Source: an uncultured archaeon (GTDB taxonomy: Archaea; Altiarchaeota; Altiarchaeia; IMC4; SCGC-AAA252-I15). Taken from it: DNA of 48,653 bases. The stretch is taken from positions 1 to 48,653 of the forward strand of contig CABMCB010000072.1 in NCBI GenBank assembly GCA_902384455.1. The letters run 5' to 3'. Under the pieces are notes generated by a model, which was given only the letters and a program-made list of their open reading frames with translations, ran no database searches and was not told the DNA's origin. The translations under genes and the position numbers were made by a program. Below are positions 6,923 to 30,547 of this stretch, one piece after another (within the stretch, counting starts at the first letter, position 1; the number at the start of each line of letters is the position of its first letter).

Positions 6923-6938
6923 GTTAACTATCGTGAAC
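6923..6938. promoter_or_regulatory. Operator upstream of feoA
   Basis: GTTAACTATCGTGAAC, 13/14 match to TTAACTATCGTTAA, adjacent to a T-rich TATA-like element about 30 bp before the feoA ATG. Confidence 0.7.
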
Positions 6939-6973
6939 TTTTTTTAGGGTGGATTCCCAATAGAAACAAAAAA

Positions 6974-7249
6974 ATGCCGGAATTCCCCCTAGACCCAAAC
7001 AAAGACGAAGACATACCCTCACCTCCAGTTTGCACCCCACTATCGCAACTTAAGGAAGGCGAAGAAGCAGTAGTAACAGGATTCATAGGCGGCTGCGCAT
7101 TCACACAACGCCTAACAGAAATGGGCCTAAGAAGAAACGCCAAAATCAGAGTCCTAGTCTCACACGGCGGCGCAGTCGTAATACAAACAGGAAACGTGAA
7201 AATAGCGGTAGGCCTAAACATGGCCCGCAGGATACTAGCGAGGAGGTAG
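6974..7249 (+). CDS. feoA: Ferrous iron transport protein A
   Basis: PLSQLKEGEEAVV...QRLTEMGL...IAVGLNMARRI FeoA pattern; directly before feoB. Confidence 0.9.
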   Translation: MPEFPLDPNKDEDIPSPPVCTPLSQLKEGEEAVVTGFIGGCAFTQRLTEMGLRRNAKIRVLVSHGGAVVIQTGNVKIAVGLNMARRILARR

Positions 7250-7252
7250 AGT

Positions 7253-9301
7253 TTGGAAATACGCGTCGCACTGATAGGCAACCCCAACGTAGGCAAAACC
7301 GCGCTATTCAACGCATTAACCGGCTCCCGACAGCACGTAGGCAACTGGCCCGGCGTCACCGTAGAAAAAAAGGAAGGATTCTACACCCACAATGACGTCT
7401 CATACCACGTCGTAGACCTGCCAGGAACATACGGCCTGACCGCACGCTCAACGACAGAGGCTATAGCGCGAAACTTTCTTTTTGAGGAAAAGCCCGGCAT
7501 AGTCGTGAACATCATAGACTCATCCAACATTGAAAGAAACCTGTATCTTACTCTGCTTTTGCTTGAAGCTGAAGCCAACGTCATCGTAGCCCTCAACATG
7601 ACTGACATCGCCACGCACAGAGGCAACGTAGTAGACGCCAAAAAGCTCGGTGAGTTGCTCGGCGTTCCGGTCGTACCGACTGTAGCGGCGAAGGGCGTGG
7701 GCATCGAAGACCTAAAGGAGGCGGTACGTGCAGCGCCAAAAAGAAAAAACGCGTTTCAACATCCATCATACGGCGAGGCGGAGAAATACATACGTCAATT
7801 AGAAGAAGCAGTGCGAAAAGACGAAGACCTTCTGAATAAAGCCACGTCATTCTGGATTGCAACGCGCATCCTCGAAGGAGACCCCGACATCACAGCCCTC
7901 GTTAGCGCCTCAAACAGCAAAAAAAAGATCCTTGACGCCGTCTCCGAAGCAAAAAAAGGGTTGTGCGATGAACCCCGCATAGTTTTAGCCGACGCCCGAT
8001 ACGCTGCCGCAGAGAAGATAACGCGCAGCGTTCTCGTCCAAGACCACACTAAAGAGACCTCAACATCAGAGAAACTCGACCGAATACTACTCCACAAAAT
8101 ACTAGCCATACCCCTAGTCCTATTCCTCATGTGGGCGGCCTTCAATCTCACTTTCACCGTTTCAGCTCCCTTCGTAAGCCTCATAGAATCCGGGTTCTCA
8201 TATGTTGGGGCAGCTGTGGATGGCCGCATAGCGAATGCGGAGTTGAATTCTTTGGTTGTGTATGGGGTTATCGGTGGGTGGGGTTCTATTGTTGCGTTCC
8301 TTCCGCCGATATTTTTCATGTTTCTTGTGTTGTCTTTTCTTGAGGAGAGCGGTTATATGGTGAGGGCTGCTTTCGTTATGGATCGGTTCATGTCTGTTAT
8401 GGGTTTGTCGGGGCGTTCGTTTATTCCGTTCGTTCTTGGTTTTGGCTGTAACGTTCCGGCGATACTGTCTACGCGTGCTATAGATGATCGTAAGGAGCGT
8501 TTTGTGACTTTGCTTGTCACTCCCCTTATGAGTTGTCAGGCGAGGCTTCCGGTCTATATTCTGGTTGGCGGTGCCTTTTTTGGGGAATATGCTGGTTCGG
8601 TGGTATTCTCTTTGTATCTTTTGGGTATTGTGTTTGCTGTTCTTATGGCTCAGGTGCTTCGGAAATTCGTCTTTTTGGGTGAGCCTGAGCCATTGTTTAT
8701 GGAGTTGCCGCCTTATCATGCGCCGGATTTTGCGGCAATGTTGCGTCATGCGTGGCGGCGGTGCATGATGTTTTTGCGTAAGGCGGCGACGGTGCTTTTT
8801 GTTGGCTCCCTTTTAATGTGGTTTGTATGTACTCATCCGTGGGGTGTAGGCGGCATCGGGGAGTCTTACGCTGGTATGGTGGGGAAGGTGCTTCAGCCGT
8901 TGTTTTCTCCGCTTGGTTTCACATGGCGGGGTGTTGTGGCGCTCTTGTCTGGTTTCATTGCGAAGGAAATCGTCGTTGGGACTATGGGTGTTTTGTATGG
9001 TGTTGGTGGCAATGAGGCTGCTCTCCAGGTTTCCATTGCGCATGATATGACGCCGCTTACCGCGTACGCTTTCATGGCGTTTGTCTTAATCTATACTCCT
9101 TGTCTTGCGACGATATCCGTAATATGGTCTGAGACTGCTTCGCGCAGGTGGGCTTTGTTTTCCGTTGGATACAGTATTGCGCTGGCGTATTTGGTGGCGT
9201 TGGCCATTACTTTCGGGGGGGCGTTTGTTGGGTCTGGTGTGAGCTCGTGTGTGAGTGTGCTGACTGAGTGTGCGTTTTTGGCGCTTTTAACGGCGACTTA
9301 A
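7253..9301 (+). CDS. feoB: Ferrous iron transport protein B
   Basis: GNPNVGKT, VGNWPGVTVE, DLPG, NMTD GTPase motifs; LEESGYM, GFGCNVPA, AKEIVVG, YTPC membrane motifs; TTG start. Confidence 0.95.
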   Translation: MEIRVALIGNPNVGKTALFNALTGSRQHVGNWPGVTVEKKEGFYTHNDVSYHVVDLPGTYGLTARSTTEAIARNFLFEEKPGIVVNIIDSSNIERNLYLTLLLLEAEANVIVALNMTDIATHRGNVVDAKKLGELLGVPVVPTVAAKGVGIEDLKEAVRAAPKRKNAFQHPSYGEAEKYIRQLEEAVRKDEDLLNKATSFWIATRILEGDPDITALVSASNSKKKILDAVSEAKKGLCDEPRIVLADARYAAAEKITRSVLVQDHTKETSTSEKLDRILLHKILAIPLVLFLMWAAFNLTFTVSAPFVSLIESGFSYVGAAVDGRIANAELNSLVVYGVIGGWGSIVAFLPPIFFMFLVLSFLEESGYMVRAAFVMDRFMSVMGLSGRSFIPFVLGFGCNVPAILSTRAIDDRKERFVTLLVTPLMSCQARLPVYILVGGAFFGEYAGSVVFSLYLLGIVFAVLMAQVLRKFVFLGEPEPLFMELPPYHAPDFAAMLRHAWRRCMMFLRKAATVLFVGSLLMWFVCTHPWGVGGIGESYAGMVGKVLQPLFSPLGFTWRGVVALLSGFIAKEIVVGTMGVLYGVGGNEAALQVSIAHDMTPLTAYAFMAFVLIYTPCLATISVIWSETASRRWALFSVGYSIALAYLVALAITFGGAFVGSGVSSCVSVLTECAFLALLTAT

Positions 9302-9321
9302 CTATATTTAACAATGGCTAA
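9298..9321. promoter_or_regulatory. Tandem operator sites at the start of the HTH regulator gene (possible autoregulation)
   Basis: TTAACTATATTTAA (9298-9311) and TTAACAATGGCTAA (9308-9321), offset by 10 bp. Confidence 0.55.
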
Positions 9322-9685
9322 TGTGATGCCTCAGGAGATTGAGGTTTGGTATATTATTCCGTCTCTTCGTCGTGAGATAGCCAAGCATTTGGTGGCTGAG
9401 AGGGGTTTTCCTCAGAAGAAGGTGGCGGGTTTGTTGGGTGTTACCGAGTCTGCTGTCAGCCAGTACCTTAAGGATAAGAGGGCGAAGGGCGTGGATTTCA
9501 ATCCCGAAACCAAAAAGCTCATTTACGATGCCGCTGATAGGATTGGCGACAATAAGGCGTCGGCTTTGGAGGAGATTTGCCGTCTGTGCGAGGCGGTGAA
9601 GGCGTCTAAGTGGATGTGCAGCGTCCACAGGAAGTATGACGAGAACCTTCCCGGCAACTGCGACGTTTGCGGGAGAAGAAAGTAA
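9314..9685 (+). CDS. XRE-type HTH regulator with Cys-rich C-terminus (COG2522-like)
   Basis: IPSLRREIAKHL...PQKKVAGLLGVTESAVSQYLKDKRA HTH; CRLC-x9-CSVH-x10-CDVC; alternative start ATG at 9326. Confidence 0.85.
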   Translation: MANVMPQEIEVWYIIPSLRREIAKHLVAERGFPQKKVAGLLGVTESAVSQYLKDKRAKGVDFNPETKKLIYDAADRIGDNKASALEEICRLCEAVKASKWMCSVHRKYDENLPGNCDVCGRRK

Positions 9686-9705
9686 GTCTGCCCCTTTATG
9701 GCATA

Positions 9706-9729
9706 TTTATATATTAACGATAGTTAATA
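9706..9729 (+). promoter_or_regulatory. suf promoter: TATA box plus perfect operator
   Basis: TTTATATA (9706-9713) abutting TATTAAC-GATA-GTTAATA (9712-9729). Confidence 0.75.
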
Positions 9730-9762
9730 CTGCTTACATCTCCCCTATACAGCACCTTCCCC

Positions 9763-11163
9763 ATGCAGGAACACAAAGTTCACCCTCCGGCAATACACGC
9801 GCACCCCTACGAAGAGAGAATTCGCCTCAGAACGCCCCCCGGAATAAACCGCGACGTAGTAGAAGCAATAAGCCACTTCAAAGGCGAACCCGAATGGATG
9901 CTCGCGCACCGACTACAATGCCTTGAAATATTCGAGAAAATCCCAACGCCAGCCTGGGGCCCAGACTTATCTAACCTGGACCTGAACGCCATAACCTACT
10001 TCATCCAACCCCCAGCCGACAGAAACAGCCGGACATGGGAAGAAGTGCCCCCAGAAATACGCGAAACATTCGAACGCCTCGGAATCCCCCAAGCGGAACG
10101 CGAAGCACTATCCGGAGTAGGCGCCCAATACGAAAGCGAAGTCGTCTACCACAACATGAAAAAAACCCTTGAAGACCAAGGCGTCACATTCATGGACTGC
10201 GACCTAGCGCTCAAAAAACACGAAGAACTATTCCACAAACACTTCATGAAAGTCGTACCCCCAAACCTCCACAAATTCAGCGCACTACACGGCGCAGTCT
10301 GGAGCGGAGGCACATTCCTACACGTACCCAAAGGAGTCAAAATAGACCTGCCCCTGCAAGCCTACTTCAGAATGAACGCCCTCAAAATGGGGCAATTCGA
10401 ACACACACTCATAATAGCCGAAGAAGGCGCTCAAGTCCACTACATAGAAGGATGCAGCGCCCCAATGTACCTCGGCCAAAACAGCCTCCACGCAGGATGC
10501 GTCGAAATACACGCCAAAAGAAAGTCGCGCGTCCGCTACAGCAGCGTGGAAAACTGGAGTAAAAACACATACAACCTCAACACCAAAAGAGCCCACATAT
10601 ACGAAGGCGCGACAATGGAATGGGTCGGCGGCAACCTAGGCGCAGGAGTAACAATGCTCTACCCATCAAGCGTACTCGTGGAAAGAAACGCCCGCGCAGA
10701 CCACATAAGCGTAGCATACGCAGGAAAAGGCCAAAACCAAGACATCGGCGCCAAAATATACCACATAGCGCCCAACACCAAAAGCGTAGTCAAAAGCAAA
10801 AGCATAAGCAAAGAAGGCGGCATCACCACATACCGCGGAATGCTCCACGTATCAAAAGAAGCGCACAACTGCATGGCAAGCGTAACATGCGACGGACTAA
10901 TCATGGACGCAGAAAGCAAAAGCAACACACACCCAGTCATGAACGTCCAAAACGAAAACGTCGACATAGCGCACGAAGCAACAGTCGGCCGCATAAGCAA
11001 CGAGCAGCTTTTCTACCTCATGAGCAGAGGGCTAAGTAAGGAGCAGGCGATTCAGATGATTGTTTCAGGGTTCATAGAGCCTGTAGTAAAGGAGCTGCCG
11101 CTGGAGTACGCGGTGGAACTCAACCGCATAATATCGATGGAAATGGAGGGGAAAGTCGGATAA
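9763..11163 (+). CDS. sufB: Fe-S cluster assembly protein SufB
   Basis: EPEWML, GVGAQYESEVVY, AVWSGGTF, GQFEHTLII, YIEGCSAP, HEATVG, ELPLEYAVELNR. Confidence 0.95.
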   Translation: MQEHKVHPPAIHAHPYEERIRLRTPPGINRDVVEAISHFKGEPEWMLAHRLQCLEIFEKIPTPAWGPDLSNLDLNAITYFIQPPADRNSRTWEEVPPEIRETFERLGIPQAEREALSGVGAQYESEVVYHNMKKTLEDQGVTFMDCDLALKKHEELFHKHFMKVVPPNLHKFSALHGAVWSGGTFLHVPKGVKIDLPLQAYFRMNALKMGQFEHTLIIAEEGAQVHYIEGCSAPMYLGQNSLHAGCVEIHAKRKSRVRYSSVENWSKNTYNLNTKRAHIYEGATMEWVGGNLGAGVTMLYPSSVLVERNARADHISVAYAGKGQNQDIGAKIYHIAPNTKSVVKSKSISKEGGITTYRGMLHVSKEAHNCMASVTCDGLIMDAESKSNTHPVMNVQNENVDIAHEATVGRISNEQLFYLMSRGLSKEQAIQMIVSGFIEPVVKELPLEYAVELNRIISMEMEGKVG

Positions 11164-11164
11164 G

Positions 11165-12352
11165 ATGGAGGAAGACCTAAAACGCCACGTAAAGAAAATT
11201 GGCGAAAAAACGGGCGAACCAGACTGGCTCACAGAAATAAAACTAAAAGCAGCCCACGAATACGCCCGCCTACCAGAACCGTCACCCCGCCTAGGACTAC
11301 ACATAAACCGCCCAACAGACCGGGGAAATTGGGCAAAACTACCCACACACCAACGCGACCTAAGGTGGACCGGCACAGGCGAAGTACTAGTCCAACCGCT
11401 GACAGACGCCGCCAAAACAAACGAAAAAGAAGTCAGAAAACTGCTGTACTCCGAAGCCGCATACACGGCAGGCCGCTATGAGGCGTTGCATTCGGCTTTG
11501 GTTTCGCGGGGTCTTTATGTTGATGTTCCTGACGGGGTTGGCGGCGTGAAGATTATTATCGACGACGTTCTGTCTGAAGGCGCGTCATATGATCATCTGC
11601 TTGTTCATGTCGGCAAGAATTCGTCTGCGACTATTGTTAACCGCCGTTTAAGCGAGGGGTTAGGAAGCGCTTACCACAGCGAAGGAGCGGAGTTGTTTTT
11701 GGAGGACGGGGCAAATTTGACTTACGCTCCCGTTCAGGCATATGGCGCGGGAGTCCGCCATTATGAGACGCGTTGCGCTGTTGTAGGCAAGAACGCGCGC
11801 CTCAATTTGGTGACTTCGGACGCAGGCGGGTCTTTGGCTCAAGTCGAAAGCCGCACGCGCCTTAGCCGGCAAGGAGGTCAAGTCAACATAATGGGCCTGT
11901 TGTTTGGGGGGCTTGAGCAGACTATCGACGTGAACGTGAGCGTCCTGCATGAGGCGGCAAACACGGAAAGCAACATTCTGCTTAGAAACGTCCTTGCGGA
12001 CAAAGCCAAGGCGATAGTCAGGGGACTCATAAACGTCGCAGAAAACGCGCCTTCAAGCGTGGGATACCAAAAGGAAGACACTCTCCTCTTGTCGCCCACA
12101 ACCGAGGCGAGCGTCATACCAAACCTAGAAATAAACAACAACGACGTCCGGTGCACCCACGCATCCAGCATAACCCACATAGACGACGAAAAACTGTTTT
12201 ACCTCAAATCGCGCGGAATACACCCTGAAGAAGGCCGCAAGCTCATCATCGAAGGGTTCATCGAGCCGATAATGAAGGCGCTTCCGGAGGACACTACGCG
12301 CGCCACATTAAGCGAGCACATACTCCTTCAGGCAACCCATAAACCACAATGA
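11165..12352 (+). CDS. sufD: Fe-S cluster assembly protein SufD
   Basis: Beta-helix SufBD fold; PNLEINNNDVRCTHAS, LFYLKSRGI. Confidence 0.9.
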   Translation: MEEDLKRHVKKIGEKTGEPDWLTEIKLKAAHEYARLPEPSPRLGLHINRPTDRGNWAKLPTHQRDLRWTGTGEVLVQPLTDAAKTNEKEVRKLLYSEAAYTAGRYEALHSALVSRGLYVDVPDGVGGVKIIIDDVLSEGASYDHLLVHVGKNSSATIVNRRLSEGLGSAYHSEGAELFLEDGANLTYAPVQAYGAGVRHYETRCAVVGKNARLNLVTSDAGGSLAQVESRTRLSRQGGQVNIMGLLFGGLEQTIDVNVSVLHEAANTESNILLRNVLADKAKAIVRGLINVAENAPSSVGYQKEDTLLLSPTTEASVIPNLEINNNDVRCTHASSITHIDDEKLFYLKSRGIHPEEGRKLIIEGFIEPIMKALPEDTTRATLSEHILLQATHKPQ

Positions 12353-13566
12353 ACGCAAAAAAAATCAGGGCGGACTTCCCGGTCCTCACAAGGAAAATCC
12401 ACGGCAAACGCCTGGTATACCTGGATAACGCGGCAACAACGCAGAAGCCGACGCAGGTAATAGACGCACTTACGAACTACTATACCGGCTACAACAGCAA
12501 CGTCCACCGGGGGATACACACGTTAAGCATCGAAGCCACAAACGCCTACGACGAAGCCCGTAAAAAAATATCTTCGTTCTTCAACGCGCAATACGACGAA
12601 ACCATATTCACCCGAGGAACCACAGAATCCATAAACCTACTCGCATACACCCTCGAACGTTTACTACCCAAAGGCGGAGACATAGCGATAACCCAGATGG
12701 AACACCACAGCAACCTGGTGCCCTGGCAGCAGTACGCCCAAAGAACAGGAGCAAACCTGCGCATAATAAAAATCGACGAAGAAGGACGCCTCGACATGAA
12801 CTCCGCAGAAGAAACGATAACAGACAAAACCCGGATACTCGCGTTCGCCCACATGAGCAACGTACTTGGCACAATAAACGACGTAAACGCGCTCACCAAA
12901 ATAGCCTCCGACCACGGCGCCATCACAATACTCGACGCCGCACAAAGCGCAACCCACATCCCAATCAACTTCAAAAAAACGTCCGCCGACTTCCTCGCCG
13001 CAAGCGGACACAAAATGCTCGGTCCAACAGGCATAGGCATCCTAATAGGAAAAAGAGAAAGACTCGAATTGCTTCCTCCGTTCCACTTCGGCGGAGAAAT
13101 GATACGCGAAGTCCACTACAACAAATCCATATGGAACAACCCCCCCTACAAGTTCGAGGCGGGAACCCCAAACATCGCAGGCGCAATAGGATACGGCGCA
13201 GCAACAGACTACCTAAACAAAATAAGCATGAGCGAAATACAAGAACACGGAAAAAAACTCACCTCCTACGCGATAAAAAAACTAGAGCAAACAGGCGCCA
13301 CAACATACGGCCCCAAAGACAGCGACAGAGGACCGGTCATAAGCTTCAACCTGGACGGGATACACCCCCACGACGCAGGAAGCCTCCTTGACGACCAAGG
13401 CATAGCGGTACGCGCAGGACACCACTGCGCAATGCCACTCATGGAACTGCTTCAAGTGCCAGCCACAATACGCGCAAGCTTCTCAATATACAACGACAAA
13501 GACGACGTCGACGCGCTAATAGACGGCGTCGAATACGTGAAAAAAGTATTCGGAGGCCGCCTATGA
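12349..13566 (+). CDS. sufS: Cysteine desulfurase (group II)
   Basis: YLDNAATTQKP, NVHRG, MEHHSNLVPW, SGHKMLGPTG (PLP Lys), RAGHHCA. Confidence 0.95.
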   Translation: MNAKKIRADFPVLTRKIHGKRLVYLDNAATTQKPTQVIDALTNYYTGYNSNVHRGIHTLSIEATNAYDEARKKISSFFNAQYDETIFTRGTTESINLLAYTLERLLPKGGDIAITQMEHHSNLVPWQQYAQRTGANLRIIKIDEEGRLDMNSAEETITDKTRILAFAHMSNVLGTINDVNALTKIASDHGAITILDAAQSATHIPINFKKTSADFLAASGHKMLGPTGIGILIGKRERLELLPPFHFGGEMIREVHYNKSIWNNPPYKFEAGTPNIAGAIGYGAATDYLNKISMSEIQEHGKKLTSYAIKKLEQTGATTYGPKDSDRGPVISFNLDGIHPHDAGSLLDDQGIAVRAGHHCAMPLMELLQVPATIRASFSIYNDKDDVDALIDGVEYVKKVFGGRL

Positions 13567-13976
13567 AAGATTCCTCTTTGATGTACACTGAGGCGATACT
13601 TGACCACTACAAGAACCCCCGAAACAGCGGGAATATCGCTGACGCGCAAATCAGGCAGCGCGGAATCAACCCCATATGCGGCGACGACATAGAGTTGACT
13701 TTAAAGGTAGAGGCGGACGTGGTCAAAGACGCCAAATTCACCTCAAACTCATGCGCCATAAGCACCGCGTCAGCCGACATGCTACTAACTAAAATCAAAG
13801 GCAAAACAATCGCGCAAGCCGAATCAATAACAAGCGACGACGCGGTGTCGGCCCTGCACATACCCATATCGCCCGCCAGAATCAAATGCGCGGTGCTACC
13901 TCTTGTCACATTAAAAGACGGCATAAACTCATTCAAGAAAAAAAGCAAGGAAAACAAAACAAGCACCACGGAGTAA
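13563..13976 (+). CDS. sufU: SufU/IscU-family sulfur-transfer or scaffold protein
   Basis: ILDHYKNPRN, NPICGDDI, SCAISTAS, RIKCA. Confidence 0.88.
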   Translation: MKDSSLMYTEAILDHYKNPRNSGNIADAQIRQRGINPICGDDIELTLKVEADVVKDAKFTSNSCAISTASADMLLTKIKGKTIAQAESITSDDAVSALHIPISPARIKCAVLPLVTLKDGINSFKKKSKENKTSTTE

Positions 13977-13980
13977 AACA

Positions 13981-14727
13981 ATGACAGGCCAACTCGAAAT
14001 AGTGGACCTCCACGTCTCAGTCGGAGGAAAAGAAATACTCAAAGGAATCACACTCACAATACACGCCGGAGAAGTCGTCGCGCTAATGGGCCCAAACGGC
14101 AGCGGAAAAAGCACCCTCTCCTACGCAATAGCCGGCCACCCAGACTACGAAATAACCCGCGGAAGCATAATCCTAAACGGCAAAGAAATCACCCGCGCCA
14201 CCGCCGACGAACGCTCACGGCAAGGCCTATTCCTATCCTTCCAGTACCCAGTGTCCATACCCGGAGTAACAGTCGCCAACTTCCTGCGGACCGCATTAAA
14301 CGCGCACCGCCCCCAAAACGAACCAATAGACGTAATCGAGTTCTACGAGCTGCTGAACCAGAAAATCAAGGCCCTCAAAATAAGCGAAGACTTCGTAAAC
14401 AGGCACCTTAACGAAGGATTCTCAGGCGGAGAAAAAAAGAGGATGGAAATACTCCAAATGTCAATACTCACGCCAAACTACGCAATACTAGACGAAACAG
14501 ACTCCGGACTAGACGTAGACGCCCTCAAAATAGTCGCCGAAGGAATAAACGCTCAAAGAAACCCCAACCTAGGCGTACTGCTAATAACCCACTACGAACG
14601 CATACTCTCCTACATAAAACCCGACAAAGCAGTAGTCATGGTGAAAGGCCGCATAATGGACTCCGGGGGGCCTGAGCTGGTCAGGGCCATTGAGGCGGAA
14701 GGATACGACCGGTGGGTAAAGGAGTAA
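13981..14727 (+). CDS. sufC: Fe-S cluster assembly ATPase SufC
   Basis: GPNGSGKST, FQYPVSIPGV, NEGFSGGEKKR, LDETDSGLD, ITHY. Confidence 0.95.
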   Translation: MTGQLEIVDLHVSVGGKEILKGITLTIHAGEVVALMGPNGSGKSTLSYAIAGHPDYEITRGSIILNGKEITRATADERSRQGLFLSFQYPVSIPGVTVANFLRTALNAHRPQNEPIDVIEFYELLNQKIKALKISEDFVNRHLNEGFSGGEKKRMEILQMSILTPNYAILDETDSGLDVDALKIVAEGINAQRNPNLGVLLITHYERILSYIKPDKAVVMVKGRIMDSGGPELVRAIEAEGYDRWVKE

Positions 14728-21056: not shown

Positions 21057-21102
21057 TTTTTATATGGGTATTCACTATTGTTAAGAAATTAACAATCCTG
21101 AA
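21057..21102 (+). promoter_or_regulatory. cysK promoter with two operator copies
   Basis: TTTTTATA (21057-21064), then TTCACTATTGTTAA (21071-21084) and TTAACAATCCTGAA (21089-21102) in inverted arrangement. Confidence 0.65.
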
Positions 21103-21114
21103 GAAGGTCTTAAA

Positions 21115-22050
21115 ATGATTTACAACAACGTCCTGGAAACGATAGGAAATACACCGCACGTCCGCCTAAACAAGGTGACAGGCCCCAAAGACGCGGAAGT
21201 AGTGGCTAAACTGGAAAGCAGAAACGCCGCATTCAGCGTCAAAGACAGGATAGCCAAATGCATGATAGAAGAAGCCGAAAAAGAAGGCGTCATCACCAAA
21301 GACACCACAATAATCGAACCCACAAGCGGAAACACAGGAATAGGACTTGCGATGGTGGCGGCAGTCAAAGGATACAAAATAAAACTCGTCATGCCGGAAA
21401 CAATGAGCATGGAACGCCGAAAACTACTCAAGGCGTTCGGCGCAGAAATCATACTAACAGAAGGCCCCAAAGGAATGGGGGGCGCAATAGCCAAAGCCGA
21501 AGAACTTGCGAAGGAAGACAACCACATATGGATTCCCCAGCAGTTCAAAAACAAAGCCAACGTCAAAGCCCACTTTGAAACCACAGGCCCTGAAATACTG
21601 CGGGAAGTAGGGAAACTGGATGCATTCGTCGCAGGAGTAGGGACAGGCGGAACAGTCAGCGGCGTGGGGAAATACCTAAAGCAAAAAATCCCCAACATAA
21701 AAATCATAGCAGTAGAACCAGCAACAAGCCCCGTACTATCCGGAGGACAACCCGGTCCACACAAGATACAGGGCATAGGCGCAGGATTCGTCCCCGAAAT
21801 ATTCGACCGCCAAGTAATCGACGAAATAATGCCTGTAGCCAGCGAAGACGCATTCAAAACGTCAGCACTGCTTGCCAGAAAAGAAGGGTTACTCGTGGGA
21901 ATAAGCGCAGGCGCAAACGCATACGCCGCACTTAAAGTCGCCAAAAAAATAGGCCACGGAAAACGCGTCGTAGTCGTACTCCCCGACACGGGCGAACGCT
22001 ACCTGTCCACACCGCTCTACGACGAATTCTTAGATGAGCCTGTGATATAA
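21115..22050 (+). CDS. cysK: Cysteine synthase A (O-acetylserine sulfhydrylase)
   Basis: SVKDRIA (PLP Lys), [32 protein letters not shown]. Confidence 0.95.
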
Positions 22051-22057: not shown

Positions 22058-22684
22058 ATGCTTGACACCCTAAGGACCGCATACAGGAAAGACCCCGCCC
22101 TCAAAGGAGGAATAAACGCGCTCGAAGTCTTCCTGTACCCCGGAGTCCAAGCAATATGGGCCCACCGCGTCGCCCACGCACTCCACACGCTTAAAGTCCC
22201 TTTTCTGCCCCGCCTCATAAGCCAAACAAGCCGCATACTAACTCAAATAGAAATCCACCCTGCCGCGCAAATAGGAAAACGATTCTTCATAGACCACGGC
22301 GCAGGAGTAGTCATAGGCGAAACAACCGTCATAGGAGACGACGTAATGATGTACCACGGCGTCACGCTTGGCGGCCACGGCTGGTGGACTGACGCTAAAG
22401 GAAGCAAACGCCACCCCACAATAGAAGACGGCGTAGTCATAGGAGTCGGCGCCACAATACTCGGGCCAGTAACAATCGGGAAAAACAGCCGCATAGGAGC
22501 AAATAGCCTGGTAATCAAAGACGTCCCAAAAAACAGCACCATCGTAAGCAACCTAGCCAACTACCTAATCAAAGAAGGCAAACCGGTAGCGGAAAAAGAC
22601 CAAACCAAACCCACAGTCCCAGACGCAGCATGGTTCGGCGACCGCGACAAACCCAAAAAAGAAGGGCCCGAATACTCAATCTGA
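22058..22684 (+). CDS. cysE: Serine O-acetyltransferase
   Basis: [40 protein letters not shown], hexapeptide repeats; ends EYSI. Confidence 0.92.
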
Positions 22685-22695
22685 ACGTTGAATGC

Positions 22696-23331
22696 TTAAC
22701 CACTCAGTTTTTTGCCGAAGTATGCGGCGATTATGAATGTTGCTGCGAGGTATATGATTAATCCTTTGTAGTCTGCGGGCGGTTTGGGCGGTGCGTCTAA
22801 CGTCAGGTTGTATCCTCCGAATTCGTCGTCTCTGTCTATGAAGCGCATTTCCTCCTTACTGCATTGTATTCCGACTAAAGTGAAGTTGTTTTCCTTAAGC
22901 AGTTTTCTGTCGTCGTCTGAAGGGGTGCAGCATCTGCTGCACGGACGCGTGATAAGCATGGCGTTGGTTTTACAGTCGGACGCATTGAAAGTCAAGTCCA
23001 TTGAAGGACACGTGGCATTGAAAGACGGCGGAAACACCGCCGAATCAATCATGTACGCTATGCCCTTGTCTGTCGCATTAAGGCAGATTCCCCGAGTACT
23101 ATAACGCATAATGTTGCGGCCTTCTTCTGCGGTGCTGTTGCGCCAAAGCTGGTTGAGCGCTGAGAGTATCTCCGGCTGGGCGCGAACCGTCTTACTGGGG
23201 TTCACCGCCGAATTGTTGCAGGACCGTGTGGCATTAAAGCAAGCGTAATCGCAGTCTGAAATAGGCAGTGAAATGCACAGGCTTACGGCGGCAACGCAGG
23301 CAGCCACAAGGATTATTACCGTCCGATTCAC
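22696..23331 (-). CDS. Secreted, C-terminally anchored Cys-rich protein with degenerate JAB/MPN-like domain
   Basis: Signal peptide, C-terminal TM, GICL...LITRP..CCTPSDDD...GIQC pattern. Confidence 0.6.
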   Translation of the reverse strand: MNRTVIILVAACVAAVSLCISLPISDCDYACFNATRSCNNSAVNPSKTVRAQPEILSALNQLWRNSTAEEGRNIMRYSTRGICLNATDKGIAYMIDSAVFPPSFNATCPSMDLTFNASDCKTNAMLITRPCSRCCTPSDDDRKLLKENNFTLVGIQCSKEEMRFIDRDDEFGGYNLTLDAPPKPPADYKGLIIYLAATFIIAAYFGKKLSG

Positions 23332-24737
23332 TTTCCAAGTCTCTCCCAGCTGGTACTGCCGTCCTTACCGTCAATAAGCCTGATACCCTGCCCAAGAAGA
23401 GTGTCTCTAATGGCGTCGGACTCGGCCCACTTCTTCTGCTTCCTAAGCAGGTTGCGTTTCTCTATCAAATCCGCCACATCCTCGCCCACCTCGCCCTCGT
23501 CAAGAGAAAGATTAAGGCCGAATACGTTTTCCGTGTCTTCGACGGCTTTTAGGGCTTTTTTGAGGGCGTTTTTTGATGCTGGTGCTTCGTCGAGCAGAGT
23601 GTTTGCGTCGCGTATGTAGTCGTAGAATGCTGCGAGCGCTTCTGGGGTTGCGAAGTCGGACTCCATCGCTTCGTTGAAGGCCGTTGTGAACGCGCTGGTG
23701 CGTTCAATGAGTTTTTCGTCGTTGCCGTCTGACGCCTTCTCGTCTTTTTCTGCGAGAGTGAGGCGTTTCTTGAAGTTTGTTAGGCGTTTGAGGCTTTCTT
23801 TTAGGCCGTCGAGTTTTTCGGGGGTGAAGTCTACTGGTTGGCGGTAGTGGTTTCCTATTACGAATAGGCGGAAGACTTGTGGGTCGTATTTCTTGAGTAG
23901 TTCTTCTACTGTGAGGAAGTTGCCCAGGCTTTTGCTCATTTTTTCTCCGCCTATGTTTAGGAAGCCCGTGTGCAGCCAGTATTTGACGAAGGGGTGTTCG
24001 CCTGTTGCGGCTTCGCTTTGGGCGATTTCGTTTTCGTGGTGGGGGAAAATCAGGTCTACTGCGCCGCCGTGTATGTCTATTTTGCCTCCCAGAAGGTCAG
24101 TGCTCATTGCGGAGCATTCGATGTGCCAGCCGGGACGTCCTTTGCCCCAGGGGCTGTCCCAGCTTATTTCGCCTTCTTTGGCGGCTTTCCATAGTGCGAA
24201 GTCGCCGGGGTTGCGTTTTTTTGGGTTGGGTTCTACGCGGTGTTTCTGGAGTTCCTCGCGGTTTTGCTTGGAGAGGTTTCCGTACTGCGGGAAGCTTTCG
24301 ACGTCGAAGTAGACGTCGCCTTCAAGCGCGTATGCGTGCCCTTTTTTTATGAGTGTTTCAGTGAGCGCTATTATCTGGGGGATGTACTGGCTGGCTTTGG
24401 GGTAGTGGTCTGCGCGGCGTATGCCCAGTGCGTCTTGGTCGGATAGCGCGTGTTTTGCGTACTCCTCAGAAAGCGTTAAAGGCGGAATGTTGCGTTCATG
24501 ACCCCTCTTGATGATTTTGTCGTCGACGTCCGTGACGTTTTGCACGCAAGTCACCTTGTAGCCCCGCTGCATCAGGTACCGCCGTATGACGTCGAAGGCG
24601 ATGTATGTGCGGGCGTGGCCTATGTGCATCCTGTCGTATACCGTGATGCCGCACACGTACATCTTGACTTCATTCTTGTGGTTGGGCTGGAAGTCTTCGA
24701 CGGTTCTAGACAGCGTGTTGTAGACGCGCGGTGCCAT
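23328..24737 (-). CDS. cysS: Cysteinyl-tRNA synthetase
   Basis: YVCGITVY, HIGH, GRPGWHIECS, FPHHENE, KMSKS. Confidence 0.96.
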   Translation of the reverse strand: MAPRVYNTLSRTVEDFQPNHKNEVKMYVCGITVYDRMHIGHARTYIAFDVIRRYLMQRGYKVTCVQNVTDVDDKIIKRGHERNIPPLTLSEEYAKHALSDQDALGIRRADHYPKASQYIPQIIALTETLIKKGHAYALEGDVYFDVESFPQYGNLSKQNREELQKHRVEPNPKKRNPGDFALWKAAKEGEISWDSPWGKGRPGWHIECSAMSTDLLGGKIDIHGGAVDLIFPHHENEIAQSEAATGEHPFVKYWLHTGFLNIGGEKMSKSLGNFLTVEELLKKYDPQVFRLFVIGNHYRQPVDFTPEKLDGLKESLKRLTNFKKRLTLAEKDEKASDGNDEKLIERTSAFTTAFNEAMESDFATPEALAAFYDYIRDANTLLDEAPASKNALKKALKAVEDTENVFGLNLSLDEGEVGEDVADLIEKRNLLRKQKKWAESDAIRDTLLGQGIRLIDGKDGSTSWERLGK

Positions 24738-24778
24738 AGCTTAAAGAGATAGGAGAGACGGTTAAAAGAGCGTCATAG

Positions 24779-25291: not shown

Positions 25292-25332
25292 TGTGTACTA
25301 ACTTATGAGGGGCCCTATTAATAGTTCCTGAA

Positions 25333-26148: not shown

Positions 26149-26176
26149 TTTGTATGGAAGCAATAGGGGCCTCCAT

Positions 26177-26262
26177 CTTATAAACCCCATTTGTTTCATC
26201 CAAGAAGCCCGACGTTTCACATTCTGAAACGCCTGTTTCAACAAACATCTTAGCTGGTTTCA
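26177..26262 (+). promoter_or_regulatory. TATA box followed by a phased GTTTCA array
   Basis: CTTATAAA at 26177; GTTTCA at 26193, 26214, 26235 and 26257; CGTTTCA-N5-TGAAACG palindrome at 26213-26231. Confidence 0.65.
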
Positions 26263-26302
26263 ACCCAAGACTCCTACAACGGGCAAACGCCCTAAACAAA
26301 AA

Positions 26303-27079
26303 ATGAAAACAACATGGAAGATAGCCGGTGGGTTGCTCACGGTCGCATTCTTGGCTGCCGCAGCATCCGCCTACTGGAACGTAAACCCCAATCGGGGATG
26401 GAAGAACGCAGACTTAGGCGGAGGAATGATGTGGCTTGACAACTTAGGCAACATCTCAGACAGGCCTCACGGCCAAGGCATGATGAGGCAAAACCCGGGC
26501 AACGACTCCAACTGGTCTAACGGATTGGGTCTGATGAAGCGCTTCGGCAACGAATCTAACTGGCCTAGAGGAATGGGTCCAATGAGGAACGCATTCGAAA
26601 ACGAGTCAGAAAGACCGAAAGGAAACTCAACCTGGCCTCATATCGCGTGCGAAGCATACTTGGCGCTGCAAACCGCTCTTGAGAACGGCGACTACGGAAC
26701 GTGGCTGAACGTAACACAAACGTACGGCCTCAAAAACCGGAACATGAGTGAACAGCAGTTTGAAGCGCACTCAACAATGCACAACGCGCTCGAGTCCGGA
26801 GACTACGGCGCTTGGGCTGCGGCAAGAGAAGACTTAGGACTTCCCGCCCTCCCTGAAGACGTCTACGATAAGATGCGCGAGCGCCATGAGCAGATGGATG
26901 CATACCTAAACGAAAGCAACGGCACATGCCCCAACTTAATCGGGCCTGTTAAGGCTGTTGCCGGCGGATTCCGTCAGGGATTCAAGAACGGGTTTAAGGA
27001 CGGTTTTATGAGCGGATTTAATATGGGGCGAGGAAACTGCCAGCGAAGGCAAACAGCCGAGGACGCGCAAAACGCGTAA
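26303..27079 (+). CDS. Secreted Met/Gly/Asn-rich repeat protein
   Basis: Signal peptide; repeats of NxSNW..GMG.M, two ALExGDYG.W units, GF..GF..GF tail. Confidence 0.7.
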   Translation: MKTTWKIAGGLLTVAFLAAAASAYWNVNPNRGWKNADLGGGMMWLDNLGNISDRPHGQGMMRQNPGNDSNWSNGLGLMKRFGNESNWPRGMGPMRNAFENESERPKGNSTWPHIACEAYLALQTALENGDYGTWLNVTQTYGLKNRNMSEQQFEAHSTMHNALESGDYGAWAAAREDLGLPALPEDVYDKMRERHEQMDAYLNESNGTCPNLIGPVKAVAGGFRQGFKNGFKDGFMSGFNMGRGNCQRRQTAEDAQNA

Positions 27080-27107
27080 TTTCCCCCTTTTTTTCCTTTC
27101 TTTTTCA
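27080..27107 (+). terminator. Oligo-T terminator
   Basis: TTTCCCCCTTTTTTTCCTTTCTTTTT directly after the stop codon. Confidence 0.45.
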
Positions 27108-27122
27108 CATTGATTATGGAAA

Positions 27123-27371
27123 ATGGCACAAGGAGTACCTTTTGCGGTTGGGAGCAGACTGGCGCACCCCATGATGTACCAACAGCCGATTTTGTTTAAC
27201 GTGTTTTTAGTCCTCCTGTTCATTTTGGCTTTCGTCGCAATACTATACTGGCTCTTCAAAAGTTCACGTCCGACGCCGTCGAACCCTCTGGAAATAGCCA
27301 AAATAAGGTACGCTAAAGGGGAATTAACCCGCGAAGAGTACCTGCACCTAAAAAAAGAACTGGAGACTTAA
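27123..27371 (+). CDS. SHOCT-domain membrane protein
   Basis: Single TM, then PLEIAKIRYAKGELTREEY...KKEL SHOCT motif. Confidence 0.85.
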   Translation: MAQGVPFAVGSRLAHPMMYQQPILFNVFLVLLFILAFVAILYWLFKSSRPTPSNPLEIAKIRYAKGELTREEYLHLKKELET

Positions 27372-27374
27372 CGC

Positions 27375-27785
27375 ATGGAAGTATCGGAAAAACGCCTACT
27401 AATAGCCATATTCGCAGTATTCCTGCTTGGCATACTATTCTCCATAGTCAACGGCCTATACACGGAGGAAACTGGCGAACCAATACCTTTGATTGTGTAC
27501 GGGCTGGCGGCATTAAGTTTGGGTGTCGGCGCCTTCCTAGTGCTTCTGTTCCAGTGGCGCATAAGCCAGGCGCAGATGCTCCACGTCCTTAAGGCGCTGC
27601 CCTCCGACGAAAGGAAAATACTGGAGGTTCTGGTGAAGGAAAAGCGGATAGAACAAAGCTACCTAGTCGCAATGACCGGCCTGTCAAAAGTCCGCGTAAG
27701 CCGGACGCTCTCGCGGCTAGAAGGCAGAGGAATACTCGAGAAAAAGCAGCTAGGGAACACGAACCTCGTGGTACTAAAAATATAG
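27375..27785 (+). CDS. Membrane-bound wHTH regulator (COG2512-like)
   Basis: Two TM helices, then LPSDERKILEVL...IEQSYLVAMTGLSKVRVSRTLSRLEGRGILEKKQLGNTN. Confidence 0.85.
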   Translation: MEVSEKRLLIAIFAVFLLGILFSIVNGLYTEETGEPIPLIVYGLAALSLGVGAFLVLLFQWRISQAQMLHVLKALPSDERKILEVLVKEKRIEQSYLVAMTGLSKVRVSRTLSRLEGRGILEKKQLGNTNLVVLKI

Positions 27786-27794
27786 TCTCAAAAA

Positions 27795-28628
27795 CTAAGG
27801 GTGCACCCGCCAGTCCCTGATCTTATCCAAAGACGGAGGCCACTCGTGAAATCCCATCATGGGCACCTGAGGATAATTGTGCTTTCTAAGCAGCCCCTCC
27901 ACGTAACCCCTGTTTTGCGGAGTGCTTAAAACAGCCACAAGCTGCCAATTCAAATCCGGAGAGTCAATGTTGACGTCCCGGTTACCTTCCTGCTCGGGGG
28001 TCGGCCTAATCACGAGCAATACTCCCGGAGGCATAAACTTCCCAAGCCCTCTATCCTTCACTCCCGCATACTGCTCTATACTAAGCTTTACCGAGTCGTT
28101 TTGGGTGACTGAAATGGTCCCCGGCGGGTCAAAGCTCGAGGAAGACCCTCCTTCCGTCTGGTCTATCTGAGTGGAAACGCTTCTAGCCTCCAAAATGCCT
28201 TCCAGACGCCATAGCCGCGTCCCATGATACTGATAATTGGGCAGTTCACTTTCGCGTTGCCGGCAACGCACAGGCAAGTATTGAATCTCCTGGTTAGCAT
28301 AAGCCATCTCTTCAGGCGTCTTTTCTCTGCCCAACAAACTCATCTTCCTCAAATCCGCGGCCCAAAGAGCCTTCTGTCGCGCCTCAGGTTCGTTGCCTTC
28401 CTGCCTGTAAATTTCTCCTTCGACATCCGCAACCTGCGCCCTCAATTCAGCCGCCTTTTTCCACGAATCTATTGTCCCATCCTTATGGAATGCTGCAATA
28501 GCCGCATCACGCACCTTTTTTCTGTCCAAAAGCTGCGCTCTTGCGTCAAGATGCCCAGCATCCTGTTGAACGGAACCTAATGCATCCACATGCTTATCTG
28601 CTCCTGGATGAGGAACGACTTTGGGCAT
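27795..28628 (-). CDS. Hypothetical protein with ADP-ribosyltransferase-like C-terminal domain
   Basis: YQYHGT...LEGILE...PGTISVT...YA pattern; helical N-terminus. Confidence 0.5.
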   Translation of the reverse strand: MPKVVPHPGADKHVDALGSVQQDAGHLDARAQLLDRKKVRDAAIAAFHKDGTIDSWKKAAELRAQVADVEGEIYRQEGNEPEARQKALWAADLRKMSLLGREKTPEEMAYANQEIQYLPVRCRQRESELPNYQYHGTRLWRLEGILEARSVSTQIDQTEGGSSSSFDPPGTISVTQNDSVKLSIEQYAGVKDRGLGKFMPPGVLLVIRPTPEQEGNRDVNIDSPDLNWQLVAVLSTPQNRGYVEGLLRKHNYPQVPMMGFHEWPPSLDKIRDWRVHP

Positions 28629-28713
28629 AGTAGTTACCTACGCGCATTTGACTGTATTAAAAGGCAGGCGCAGATTCATCGAATTTTTATTTTCAGCCGG
28701 GAGATTCTACTGC

Positions 28714-29742
28714 ATGGCGTCCGTCAAGGTTGTGCAGCAGGGTCTTGGAGTCATAGGGCAGTCTATCCTGAAGGAACTTATCTCACGTGGCTACGAAATA
28801 GTCGGAGTAGTCGACAAAAGGCCTGACTTAAAGGGTAAACGGCTGAAGGACTTAGGGTTCACCGGGAAGTATTCAGACCTTGCCATCACTGACGACTGGC
28901 GCAAGATAATTGAAAAAACGGAAGTTGACGTTTTATCCAACGCCACCGTATCAAAATTCGACGTACTTGCGCCGGACGTAAAGGCGATGGCTGAATCCGG
29001 CAGGATACGCGCTGTGATATCCACATGCGAAGAACTCTCGTACCCCCACCTAAAGCATAGAAAACTTGCTGAAGAACTTGACCAAACATTAAAGCAGAGG
29101 CATGTCTCATTGCTCGGCACAGGAGTAAACCCCGGCTACGTAATGGACACACTACCATTGGTTGCCTCAGCCCCATGCCTGACTGTAGAACGCATAGAAA
29201 TAGACCGAATAATGAACGCCTCCTTAAGGAGAGAAGCATTCCAACGCAAAATCGGCGCAGGCAGCACCCGCCAGCAGTTCAATCAACTTGTAAAAGAAGG
29301 CAAAATAAGGCACGTAGGCCTCACTGAATCAGTGGCTATGATGACGGCCGCATTAGGATTCGACATACACTCCTCTGACGTGGAAATCAAGGAAAGCGTC
29401 CCCGAACCCTTACTAGCCAAATACCCCGTTAAGACTGAGTTCATTGAAGTCGCACCCGGAAACCCCTCCGGGGTACACCAATACGCCACCTGCAAAATCA
29501 AAGGCAAAGAAACAATCCGACTCAACTTCAAAGCCGCAGTAGACCTGCAGGAGTCTTACGATGAATGCAGGATTTACCCGAAAGACGGCGGCGAGCCAGC
29601 AATGAAATTGCGTTGCGTCGGCGGAGTATTCGGCGACACCGCAACAATCGCAATGATAGCAAACTGCATACCATACCTGCGTACGGCCGGTCCGGGACTT
29701 AAGACGATGCTGGACGTGCCCGCAAGATACAGAAAAAACTGA
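28714..29742 (+). CDS. 2,4-diaminopentanoate dehydrogenase / DapB-like NAD(P) oxidoreductase
   Basis: GLGVIG Rossmann motif, STCEELSYP, GTGVNPGYVMD, QRKIGAG, HVGLTES, GDTAT; ATG at 28714. Confidence 0.8.
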   Translation: MASVKVVQQGLGVIGQSILKELISRGYEIVGVVDKRPDLKGKRLKDLGFTGKYSDLAITDDWRKIIEKTEVDVLSNATVSKFDVLAPDVKAMAESGRIRAVISTCEELSYPHLKHRKLAEELDQTLKQRHVSLLGTGVNPGYVMDTLPLVASAPCLTVERIEIDRIMNASLRREAFQRKIGAGSTRQQFNQLVKEGKIRHVGLTESVAMMTAALGFDIHSSDVEIKESVPEPLLAKYPVKTEFIEVAPGNPSGVHQYATCKIKGKETIRLNFKAAVDLQESYDECRIYPKDGGEPAMKLRCVGGVFGDTATIAMIANCIPYLRTAGPGLKTMLDVPARYRKN

Positions 29743-29746
29743 GGTA

Positions 29747-29817
29747 AGCGGAGGGAGGGAGTCGAACCCCCCTATGCCGGTCTGCAGCCGGCCCCATAGC
29801 CGATCTGGCACCTCCGC
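29747..29817 (-). tRNA. tRNA-Cys(GCA)
   Basis: Cloverleaf GCGGAGG...GCCGG-CTGCAGA-CCGGC...GGGGG-TTCGACT-CCCTC-CCTCCGC-T; U73 discriminator; CCA not encoded; no intron. Confidence 0.93.
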
Positions 29818-29897
29818 GTAAAGGGGAATTTAGGGTTAAAGAGTGGGGGGTTGAAGTTTAAGAAGATGCTTTTGAGGCGCTAATAAAATGGGGGGTT

Positions 29898-29922
29898 GGC
29901 CTGCGGTGTGTGTCTGCAGGCC
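29898..29922 (-). terminator. Hairpin downstream of the cupredoxin gene
   Basis: GGCCTGCGG-TGTGTGT-CTGCAGGCC, about 20 bp past the stop. Confidence 0.35.
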
Positions 29923-29943
29923 TGTTTGTTGTTTTGTCTGTGT

Positions 29944-30495
29944 TTATTGGACTGTTAGTGTGCCTACCATGTCTCTGTGTCCGCTTCCGCATCTGACTGA
30001 GCAGTAGTATGTGAATGTGCCTGTTTTGTCTGCGATGAAGTCTGCGTCAGCGGTTTTTCCTGCGGGTATTACGACGTTGACGTTGAGTTCGTCTATTGCG
30101 AATCCGTGGGCTACGTCTGTGCTTGTTAGGTGGATTATTACGTGGTCGCCTTTGTTCACGGTGATTGTTGCGGGGTCGAATGCGAATTGTTTAGCAGTCA
30201 TAGTGAATTCTTTAGCTGGCGCGGTTGCGACTACGGTTGTGGTTGTTGCTGTCGGTTGTTGGTTTATTTGGGTGGTGGTTGTGGTGGATTCTTGCGTTTG
30301 TGTTGGTTGCGGTGTTTTGGCGGGTTCTGTTGGCGGTGTTGTTGCGGGTGCCTCTGTCGTCGGTTTGACTGTCGTTTGTTGGGGAATTGTCGTTGGGGTT
30401 CCGCTTTGTTGCGTTTGCGTGTTGTTTGGTTCACTTCCTAAGCATCCTGCTGCGATTACGGTCAGCAGGATGGTTAATGCTAGCAGTTTTTTCAT
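29944..30495 (-). CDS. Lipoprotein with stand-alone CuA cupredoxin domain
   Basis: IAAGC lipobox, T/P/Q linker, DVAHGF...CSVRCGSGHRDM CuA ligand set. Confidence 0.85.
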   Translation of the reverse strand: MKKLLALTILLTVIAAGCLGSEPNNTQTQQSGTPTTIPQQTTVKPTTEAPATTPPTEPAKTPQPTQTQESTTTTTQINQQPTATTTTVVATAPAKEFTMTAKQFAFDPATITVNKGDHVIIHLTSTDVAHGFAIDELNVNVVIPAGKTADADFIADKTGTFTYYCSVRCGSGHRDMVGTLTVQ

Positions 30496-30513
30496 TCGAG
30501 TCCTCGTGGATAC

Positions 30514-30547
30514 TTAATTATCGTTAACCTTTATAAACTATCGTTAA
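30514..30547. promoter_or_regulatory. Divergent ferritin/cupredoxin promoter with two operator copies
   Basis: TTAATTATCGTTAA (30514-30527), palindromic TTTATAAA (30530-30537), TAAACTATCGTTAA (30534-30547). Confidence 0.75.

Follow-up and report, generated by a model that had tools for sequence, protein, structure and literature searches.

Does one regulator govern iron uptake, iron-sulfur (Fe-S) cluster assembly, cysteine synthesis and iron storage in an uncultured archaeon of the Altiarchaeota? The question is raised by the window, the whole 48,653-nucleotide (nt) stretch of DNA analysed (assembly GCA_902384455.1, contig CABMCB010000072.1), in which a 14-base-pair (bp) palindrome recurs before feoAB, a small helix-turn-helix (HTH) gene, sufBDSUC, cysK-cysE and a divergent cupredoxin/ferritin gene pair. 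The HTH protein encoded at 9314-9685, P0001, is the likely binder of the palindrome and probably the shared regulator. The palindrome is interpreted, with good but not full confidence, as the operator of this protein, a repressor-type regulator of iron, Fe-S, cysteine and antioxidant genes. All eight sites listed in an earlier sequence-only reading are present, and its gene identities (FeoA, FeoB, SufB, SufD, SufS, SufU, SufC, CysK, CysE, cupredoxin, ferritin) are confirmed by Pfam. The predicted operators, with matrix scores in bits, and the genes are as follows.

6924-6937: operator TTAACTATCGTGAA, upstream of feoA, 36 nt before the ATG; 19.0 bits.
6974-7249 and 7253-9301, plus strand: feoA and feoB, ferrous iron uptake; Pfam FeoA 1.8e-14, FeoB_N 4e-63.
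9298-9311: operator TTAACTATATTTAA of the HTH gene, overlapping the feoB stop codon and ending 2 nt before the ATG; 19.0 bits.
9308-9321: weaker auxiliary site TTAACAATGGCTAA, offset by 10 bp, overlapping the start codon of the HTH gene; 13.9 bits.
9314-9685, plus strand: HTH protein P0001, 123 amino acids (aa), the proposed regulator.
9714-9727: suf operator TTAACGATAGTTAA, 35 nt before the sufB ATG; 23.2 bits, the top score genome-wide.
9763-11163, 11165-12352, 12349-13566, 13563-13976 and 13981-14727, plus strand: sufB, sufD, sufS, sufU and sufC, assigned by Pfam.
21071-21084: cysK operator TTCACTATTGTTAA, 5 nt 3' of TTTTTATATG; 19.6 bits.
21089-21102: weaker auxiliary site TTAACAATCCTGAA, offset by 18 bp from the cysK operator; 13.2 bits.
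21115-22050 and 22058-22684, plus strand: cysK and cysE, cysteine synthesis; Pfam PALP 1.9e-75, Hexapep.
29944-30495, minus strand: cupredoxin-domain protein, divergent from ferritin; Pfam Cupredoxin_1.
30514-30527: operator 1, TTAATTATCGTTAA, in the cupredoxin/ferritin divergent region; 17.6 bits.
30534-30547: operator 2, TAAACTATCGTTAA, in overlap with the shared box TTTATAAA; the ferritin ATG follows after 27 nt; 19.0 bits.
30575-31066, plus strand: ferritin; Pfam Ferritin 3.2e-43.

Allowing one mismatch at most to TTAACNNNNGTTAA gives 8 matches in the window (1.96 expected), a number reached by 0 of 100 shuffles. Seven are sites of the earlier list; the eighth, at 11637, lies within sufD. 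Site 21089 has two mismatches. Enrichment is absent from the window at two mismatches (18 matches, 21.7 expected), and the signal is therefore confined to stricter motif definitions. Sites 9308 and 21089 are each no more than 45 bp from a strong site, a range in which 0.007 weak matches are expected by chance, and are read as putative auxiliary sites. Spacings between neighbouring sites in the window are 10, 18 and 20 bp. An operator pair at a constant spacing of 39 bp occurs in five divergent regions of other Altiarchaeota, between cysK and a short-form regulator gene (L085, L087, L090, L092, L156). The suf operator, immediately preceded on its 5' side by TTTATATA, had been credited with perfect 7-bp arms; only 12 of its 14 positions are palindromic, positions 6 and 9 being unpaired.

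The scoring matrix is derived from other archaea. A search with P0001, one genome per species, yielded 80 DPANN loci, mostly labelled Woesearchaeota, Pacearchaeota and Nanoarchaeota, with homologues at 39-57% identity. From 46 of these loci 49 sites were taken, each with at most one arm mismatch and upstream of the homologue; window DNA was excluded. In the training sites, conservation of the central positions A7 and T8 is 97% for each, though both were left free in selection. C is very rare at position 6, as is G at position 9. Because the centre is conserved without having been selected, the motif is the full 14-bp palindrome TTAAC-D-A-T-H-GTTAA. The spacer, called non-palindromic in the sequence-only reading, is mostly a continuation of the palindrome. 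Six of the eight window sites score 17.6-23.2 bits, site 9308 scores 13.9 and site 21089 scores 13.2.

Applied to the genome of 2.41 Mb, the matrix finds ten matches at 17.6 bits or more; the next best is down at 14.5 bits. All ten are intergenic by the analysis's own gene calls, made with a crude open reading frame (ORF) and codon-usage caller that covers 77% of bases and misses the HTH gene itself; "intergenic" denotes the 23.9% of the genome outside these calls. A first-order Markov model of intergenic DNA predicts 0.99 sites at 17.6 bits or more (10 seen) and 0.10 at 19 bits or more (8 seen). The reversed genome, used as matrix control, has no match at 16 bits or more. Six of the ten lie in the window: at feoA, the HTH gene, sufB and cysK, and two at ferritin/cupredoxin. 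The other four are on two further contigs.

C71:177624: perfect site between an Fe/Mn superoxide dismutase (SOD) gene and a 1,783-aa ORF.
C71:165480: strong site upstream of MsrB.
C9:39827: strong site flanked by a peroxiredoxin gene and an ORF of 170 aa.
C71:197718: strong site without a clear target gene.

The predicted regulon is therefore wider than first proposed, by the SOD, MsrB and peroxiredoxin sites on other contigs; its feo and ferritin members were not found in relatives. The 1,783-aa ORF (C71:177682-183030) is divergent from the SOD gene, with the perfect operator and a TATA-like box common to both; no Pfam match is found in its first 506 residues. At C71:197708-197731 the strong site is overlapped by a TTAAC-type 14-mer, 225 bp upstream of formate-tetrahydrofolate ligase, and a small Cys-containing ORF (at most 62 aa, no Pfam match) adjoins it. 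This may be the chance site.

Composition could in principle produce such a pattern. The sites would then be a by-product of A+T-rich promoter DNA, of the TFB recognition element (BRE) and TATA box, or of chance, with no dedicated binder. CGTTAA-like half-sites do resemble the BRE and adjoin TATA boxes, the two-mismatch pattern is unenriched in the window, and about one strong intergenic site is expected by chance. Set against this are the ten strong sites where about one is expected and the eight at 19 bits or more where 0.10 is, the unselected A-T centre kept at 97% each, the placement of the operator on either side of the TATA box, and the absence of the palindrome from 35 protein-lacking relatives, described below, which also have promoters. 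The explanation is hardly credible.

The palindrome accompanies the protein in other archaea. In the 80 DPANN loci (807,497 bases) there are 70 perfect copies of TTAACNNNNGTTAA, 41 of them within 200 bp upstream of the homologue start, in 40 loci. With the matrix, 79 matches at 14 bits or more are found, the reversed sequence giving 4. Of the 79, 68 lie upstream of the homologue (34), of sufB (21) or in a divergent region shared by the two (13), and 11 elsewhere. The HTH gene is preceded by the palindrome in 45 of the 80 loci, a count that is circular with the matrix training set; the sufB sites, the relatives and the genome studied here are independent of it. Either this gene or sufB is so preceded in 63 of 80. 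The gap between palindrome and predicted start is below 20 nt in 22 of 47 DPANN cases. Genes for suf or iscS/iscU-like proteins lie beside the homologue in 61 of 80 loci (49 SufB-type, 12 SufS/SufU-like pairs), cysKE in 1 of 80. Cupredoxin homologues are present at 5 of the 80 regulator loci, one with a site in front.

Among 61 genomes of the phylum, scored for the protein with profile A2 at E <= 1e-8, perfect TTAACDATHGTTAA is present in 24 of the 26 that have the protein and in none of the 35 that lack it; as a control, the reversed pattern matches once in each of 2 genomes. A smaller set of 31 relatives has the same pattern. Genomes of one phylum are kin, so these counts overstate independence; counted by genus, 16 of 31 have the regulator and 14 of 31 the motif. 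The palindrome also lies upstream of the family's own genes in relatives of the window's genome. The single regulon proposed in the sequence-only reading, with the 9314-9685 protein named there for testing, is supported by this co-occurrence and by the own-gene, suf, iscSU and cysKE sites elsewhere.

The same counts bear on whether the palindrome is bound by a regulator of known type encoded elsewhere, NssR-type CRP/FNR or DtxR, the HTH gene being merely one of its targets. The arm pattern TTAACnnnnGTTAA equals the FNR-like box of Campylobacter NssR, as given in the available portion of its description (PMC1274295), and the three relatives checked have full DtxR-family proteins (L177, L184 and L189, of G002, G004 and G022), repressors with a C-terminal FeoA domain. 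In the present genome, 91.9% complete, no Fur was found, DtxR gave only two sub-threshold matches, and the only HTH_Crp_2 match over cut-off is a CTP-dependent riboflavin kinase fusion; thus neither CRP/FNR nor Fur nor an over-cut-off DtxR was found in it. Iron-gene loci of the DtxR-bearing relatives are without the palindrome, which follows the HTH protein (24 of 26 versus 0 of 35). Control by a known-type regulator is very unlikely.

Targets in relatives are mainly those of sulfur and cluster metabolism. At least 11 genomes of the window's order have perfect sites before cysK-cysE, and 6 have them before iscS/iscU-like pairs; the palindrome-bearing cysK-cysE orthologues are 67-73% identical to the window's genes. 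Further Pfam-checked targets in the order are Cys_Met_Meta_PP enzymes, a CBS-type PALP enzyme, a 442-aa PALP enzyme, CysRS, a CDGSH protein, ApbE, an SBP_bac_11 solute-binding protein, a ferredoxin-domain protein and a BadF-type ATPase. Beyond the regulator and suf, sites in DPANN loci stand before Fe/Mn SOD (2 loci), cupredoxin, FTR1 iron permease, an A-type Fe-S carrier, a radical-SAM enzyme, rhodanese, an HTH_10 protein and a 6-phosphogluconolactonase-like protein. SOD and cupredoxin sites recur in this genome and in DPANN loci. Sites recur before suf and cys genes of other archaea and were not found before feo and ferritin genes in the relatives searched. Of the 19 FeoA-domain loci, about 10 are DtxR-sized ORFs, 3 of them confirmed as DtxR. 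The regulon may have grown to cover iron genes in a genome without a detected DtxR. A CysRS gene is located in the window at 23328-24737 (minus strand), close to cysK-cysE; no operator was found upstream of it, and the CysRS of relative G022 has a perfect operator 208 bp upstream.

The proposed regulator is a small protein with an HTH domain and a cysteine-rich tail. Pfam and NCBIfam scans of P0001 give only sub-threshold matches, of HTH_23, HTH_3, ArsR, sigma-70 and CmtR types; the HTH_3 match (PF01381) scores 20.8 bits at a cut-off of 23, and many homologues carry a precomputed PF01381 match. Rrf2 (PF02082), FUR (PF01475) and DtxR domains are absent, in agreement with the non-Rrf2, non-Fur regulator predicted. 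The N-terminus contains a PQE..WY..P..R segment (family form P-Q/C-E..WY..P..R), the recognition region within the HTH an A-x-SQY-x3-KR segment. Conserved family residues are P6, E8, W12, Y13, P16, R19, A47, S49, Q50, Y51, K55 and R56; the last six are invariant or nearly so in long and short forms, matching the invariant operator. The C-terminal Cys3His tail has the form C102-x2-H105-x10-C116-x2-C119, with additional C89 and C92. In 145 representatives C102 is kept in 139, H105 in 125 (Cys in 14 others), C116 in 142 and C119 in 135. A short form of about 95-110 aa occurs in relatives, its close members labelled Candidatus Altiarchaeota at source; its cysteines lie in an N-terminal PCE and a C-terminal CxCC, the latter at the position occupied in P0001 by C89 and C92, alongside the full tail. 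Against a library of 1.84 billion representatives, a family profile of long and short forms retrieves 2,732 clusters (50% identity) at E <= 0.001 and 1,266 at 1e-10, mostly 115-130 aa. A word search for longer or fused relatives of P0001 gave none; the profile search gave one, P0179 (506 aa), in which the regulator domain (residues 8-121) is joined to a class-V aminotransferase of cysteine desulfurase type. This is either a fusion or a read-through gene call.

The AlphaFold model of P0001 is of good confidence (predicted local distance difference test score 84.9) and has six helices. Against solved structures, sequence search gave nothing below E 0.7 and Foldseek nothing at E <= 0.001; with VIA-align over 48,161 chains the best Z is 5.5 (Bcl-2-like and OTU helical proteins), within the noise of helical models. 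The HTH part is best matched by DNA-binding domains of DeoR, LsrR and SorC (Z 3.8-4.7). The predicted homodimer scores 0.27 at a mark of 0.42 and carries no weight either way. A second small DNA-binding protein, 136 aa with a DUF7343/MarR_2-like winged helix, is encoded in the window at 27375-27785 (plus strand); it shows no link to the palindrome.

The tail may carry an Fe-S cluster or some redox-sensitive metal, and it would be the loaded form that binds DNA; this assignment is tentative and falls just short of an even chance. The main rival concerns the signal. With the same protein and operator, the ligand would be a sulfur metabolite (cysteine, O-acetylserine, sulfide or persulfide), as in CymR or CysB, and the long-form tail a structural zinc site or a later addition. 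The conserved core in the window's order, sulfur amino-acid metabolism with iscS/iscU-like genes, favours such a signal, as does the regulator of that order, which is the tail-less short form and usually divergent to cysK. Opposed to it are the DPANN partners (suf/iscSU in 61 of 80, cysKE in only 1), the sites at SOD, peroxiredoxin, MsrB, ferritin, feoAB and FTR1, which fit an iron or redox signal better, and the retention of the four tail ligand positions in 125-142 of 145 representatives. A sulfur-metabolite signal is rated as rather unlikely.

The position of the sites bears on the mode of action. By eye, the manner in which all TATA boxes were assigned, the earlier statement that a TATA box adjoins most sites is borne out. 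Just downstream of a TATA-like box are the operators of sufB, cysK, the regulator gene, cupredoxin and the 1,783-aa ORF, and ferritin operator 2. Directly upstream of one, over the BRE, are those of feoA (immediately 5' of a TATA-like T-run), SOD, MsrB and peroxiredoxin, and ferritin operator 1. Position downstream of the TATA box, over the start site, is classical for archaeal repressors. Two-fold symmetry of the palindrome suggests binding by a dimer; its presence before the regulator's own gene makes autoregulation likely; the promoter geometry points to a mainly repressing role. At downstream operators the bound protein would block RNA polymerase at the expected start site; at BRE operators it would block transcription factor B (TFB) or, less likely, recruit it. 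DPANN SOD sites are at most 13 nt from the start codon in two loci, which favours repression of SOD also. With the same operator before feoAB, ferritin/cupredoxin, SOD, MsrB and peroxiredoxin, a single protein would coordinate the supply of iron and of sulfur with cluster assembly, iron storage and defence against oxidative damage. Loss of the cluster through shortage of iron or sulfur, or through oxidation, would release the whole gene set, as in IscR, SufR and RirA.

Several points weigh against this interpretation, beside the circular and kin-biased counts and the by-eye TATA boxes already named. Sites are missing altogether from 14 of the 80 DPANN loci, and a perfect palindrome from 2 of the 26 regulator-bearing genomes. 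In other genomes of the order, none of 8 ferritin loci and none of 19 FeoA-domain loci has a site of 11 bits or more. About one of the ten strong genomic sites may be due to chance, given the expectation of 0.99, and the site at C71:197718 is the one with no clear target. The short form has no Cys3His tail; the tail is therefore not needed for DNA-binding specificity, and sensing may differ between forms. The role of the tail is the weakest link, since Cys3His may just bind structural zinc. Every functional step is inferred.

The history of the locus appears to involve other lineages. SufB of this genome has 55-65% identity to SufB of the DPANN loci; in 16 genomes of its own order the best-matching SufB-like proteins are no more than 24-30% identical to it. 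For the regulator, identity is 39-57% with DPANN forms and 34-49% with the short forms of relatives, in the latter case over a shorter length only. The DPANN-like SufB and regulator suggest horizontal exchange of the regulator-sufBDSUC module (9314-14727), with its operator, with DPANN lineages. The contig itself is archaeal: it encodes a prefoldin subunit and a ThrRS whose editing domain is the archaea-specific one. The assembly (G000) consists of 103 contigs with a G+C content of 50.5% and carries two TBP genes. Its sole small-subunit (SSU) rRNA found, on C6 (1064-2424), scores 1242 bits with the bacterial model versus 853 with the archaeal one, and lies beside a fragment of a group II intron. 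Genes with sigma-70 region 2 are located on C68 (about 28950-29980) and C4 (about 62790-62950). Judged by this bacterial-type rRNA and the sigma-70 genes, the archaeal bin includes some bacterial contigs.

No archaeal description of the motif or the protein was found in full-text literature searches; the arms alone equal the NssR box in the part of its description cited above. The available portion of a 2026 review names only IscR, SufR, NsrR, SoxR, RirA and FNR as Fe-S-sensing regulators (PMC13066941). Archaeal regulation of Fe-S assembly and cysteine supply appears to be undescribed. In its fullest form the proposal is of the first recognisable archaeal transcription factor, operator and regulon for Fe-S biogenesis and cysteine supply: a family of about 120 aa (2,732 clusters) with an Fe-S cluster bound by Cys3His, counterpart of IscR, SufR, CymR and PerR combined, its module moved between DPANN and Altiarchaeota and its regulon expanded where no DtxR is found. 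So extended, it is somewhat less likely than not. If it is true, one 14-bp palindrome switches suf/isc, cysKE, iron uptake and storage and antioxidant genes in DPANN and Altiarchaeota, uncultured lineages in which almost nothing is known of gene regulation. Three parts are testable: the regulator family, the sharply defined operator, and a target list kept across these lineages. From operator and family, regulons become predictable in many genomes. The feo, ferritin, SOD, peroxiredoxin and MsrB sites, where no DtxR or Fur was found, would exemplify the growth of a regulon. To test the pairing of regulator and operator, a 123-aa protein and short oligonucleotides suffice.

Among known systems, IscR is alike in being a small autoregulated HTH regulator of Fe-S assembly genes. 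Its sensor ligands are three Cys and one His. The P0001 tail has the same Cys3His composition; the ligand spacing of this putative site differs from that of IscR. IscR is unlike P0001 in its Rrf2 domain (none detected in P0001), its different operator and its bacterial rather than archaeal host. SufR proteins are about 220-240 aa in length. In the accessible portion of a recent preprint SufR is a repressor beside the suf operon, with a palindrome in the suf promoter and a C-terminal Fe-S cluster sensor; a [4Fe-4S] cluster is held by three Cys plus a ligand other than Cys that has yet to be identified, AT-hooks are present, the site is CAAC-N6-GTTG, and putative archaeal homologues are COG2345 proteins (bioRxiv 10.64898/2025.12.26.696629). 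P0001 differs from SufR, as portrayed in that portion, in its 123 aa, HTH_3-like domain and TTAAC-N4-GTTAA operator, and its family is other than COG2345. Membership of SufR (COG2345) is ruled out by this length and operator.

CymR and CysB are cases of one regulator covering cysteine synthesis. RirA is an iron regulator of rhizobia that covers iron uptake. It is named among Fe-S-sensing regulators in the same portion of the review (PMC13066941). The three belong to bacterial families (Rrf2, LysR) unrelated to P0001, and none by itself covers suf, cysKE, feo, ferritin, SOD and peroxiredoxin as predicted here. SurR of Thermococcales is redox-switched, its effect set by a site upstream or downstream of BRE/TATA; it has an ArsR-type winged helix, a CxxC switch and a GTT-N3-AAC site. 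The two promoter geometries found here invite the same reading; Pfam suggests no homology of P0001 to SurR. Campylobacter NssR is alike in its identical arms TTAACnnnnGTTAA, as far as the available portion of its description goes (PMC1274295). It is unlike in being a bacterial activator of a globin gene with a cyclic-nucleotide-binding (cNMP) domain; the A-T centre and the D and H positions are specific to the archaeal motif. Membership of CRP/FNR is ruled out for P0001 by the absence of cNMP-binding and HTH_Crp_2 domains, that of DtxR/IdeR/MntR by the absence of Fe_dep_repress and Fe_dep_repr_C domains.

In the ESM Atlas, clusters named "Transcription regulator ThiR" (HTH_3 with ThiN) have a template-modelling score of 0.80 to the Atlas model of P0001, and small archaeal XRE/HTH_3 clusters are listed with a feature score of 0.95-0.96. 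The resemblance to the ThiR DNA-binding domain, from Atlas models alone, is taken as a lead only. ThiN proteins of relatives are fusions of about 440 aa or stand-alone proteins of about 200 aa; no HTH was found in ORFs of two of the three stand-alone ThiN loci fetched. ThiR senses thiamine through its ThiN domain; the added part of P0001 is the Cys3His tail, not ThiN. Protein and palindrome are rated as a predicted new family and operator that would do in these archaea what IscR, SufR and CymR do in bacteria.

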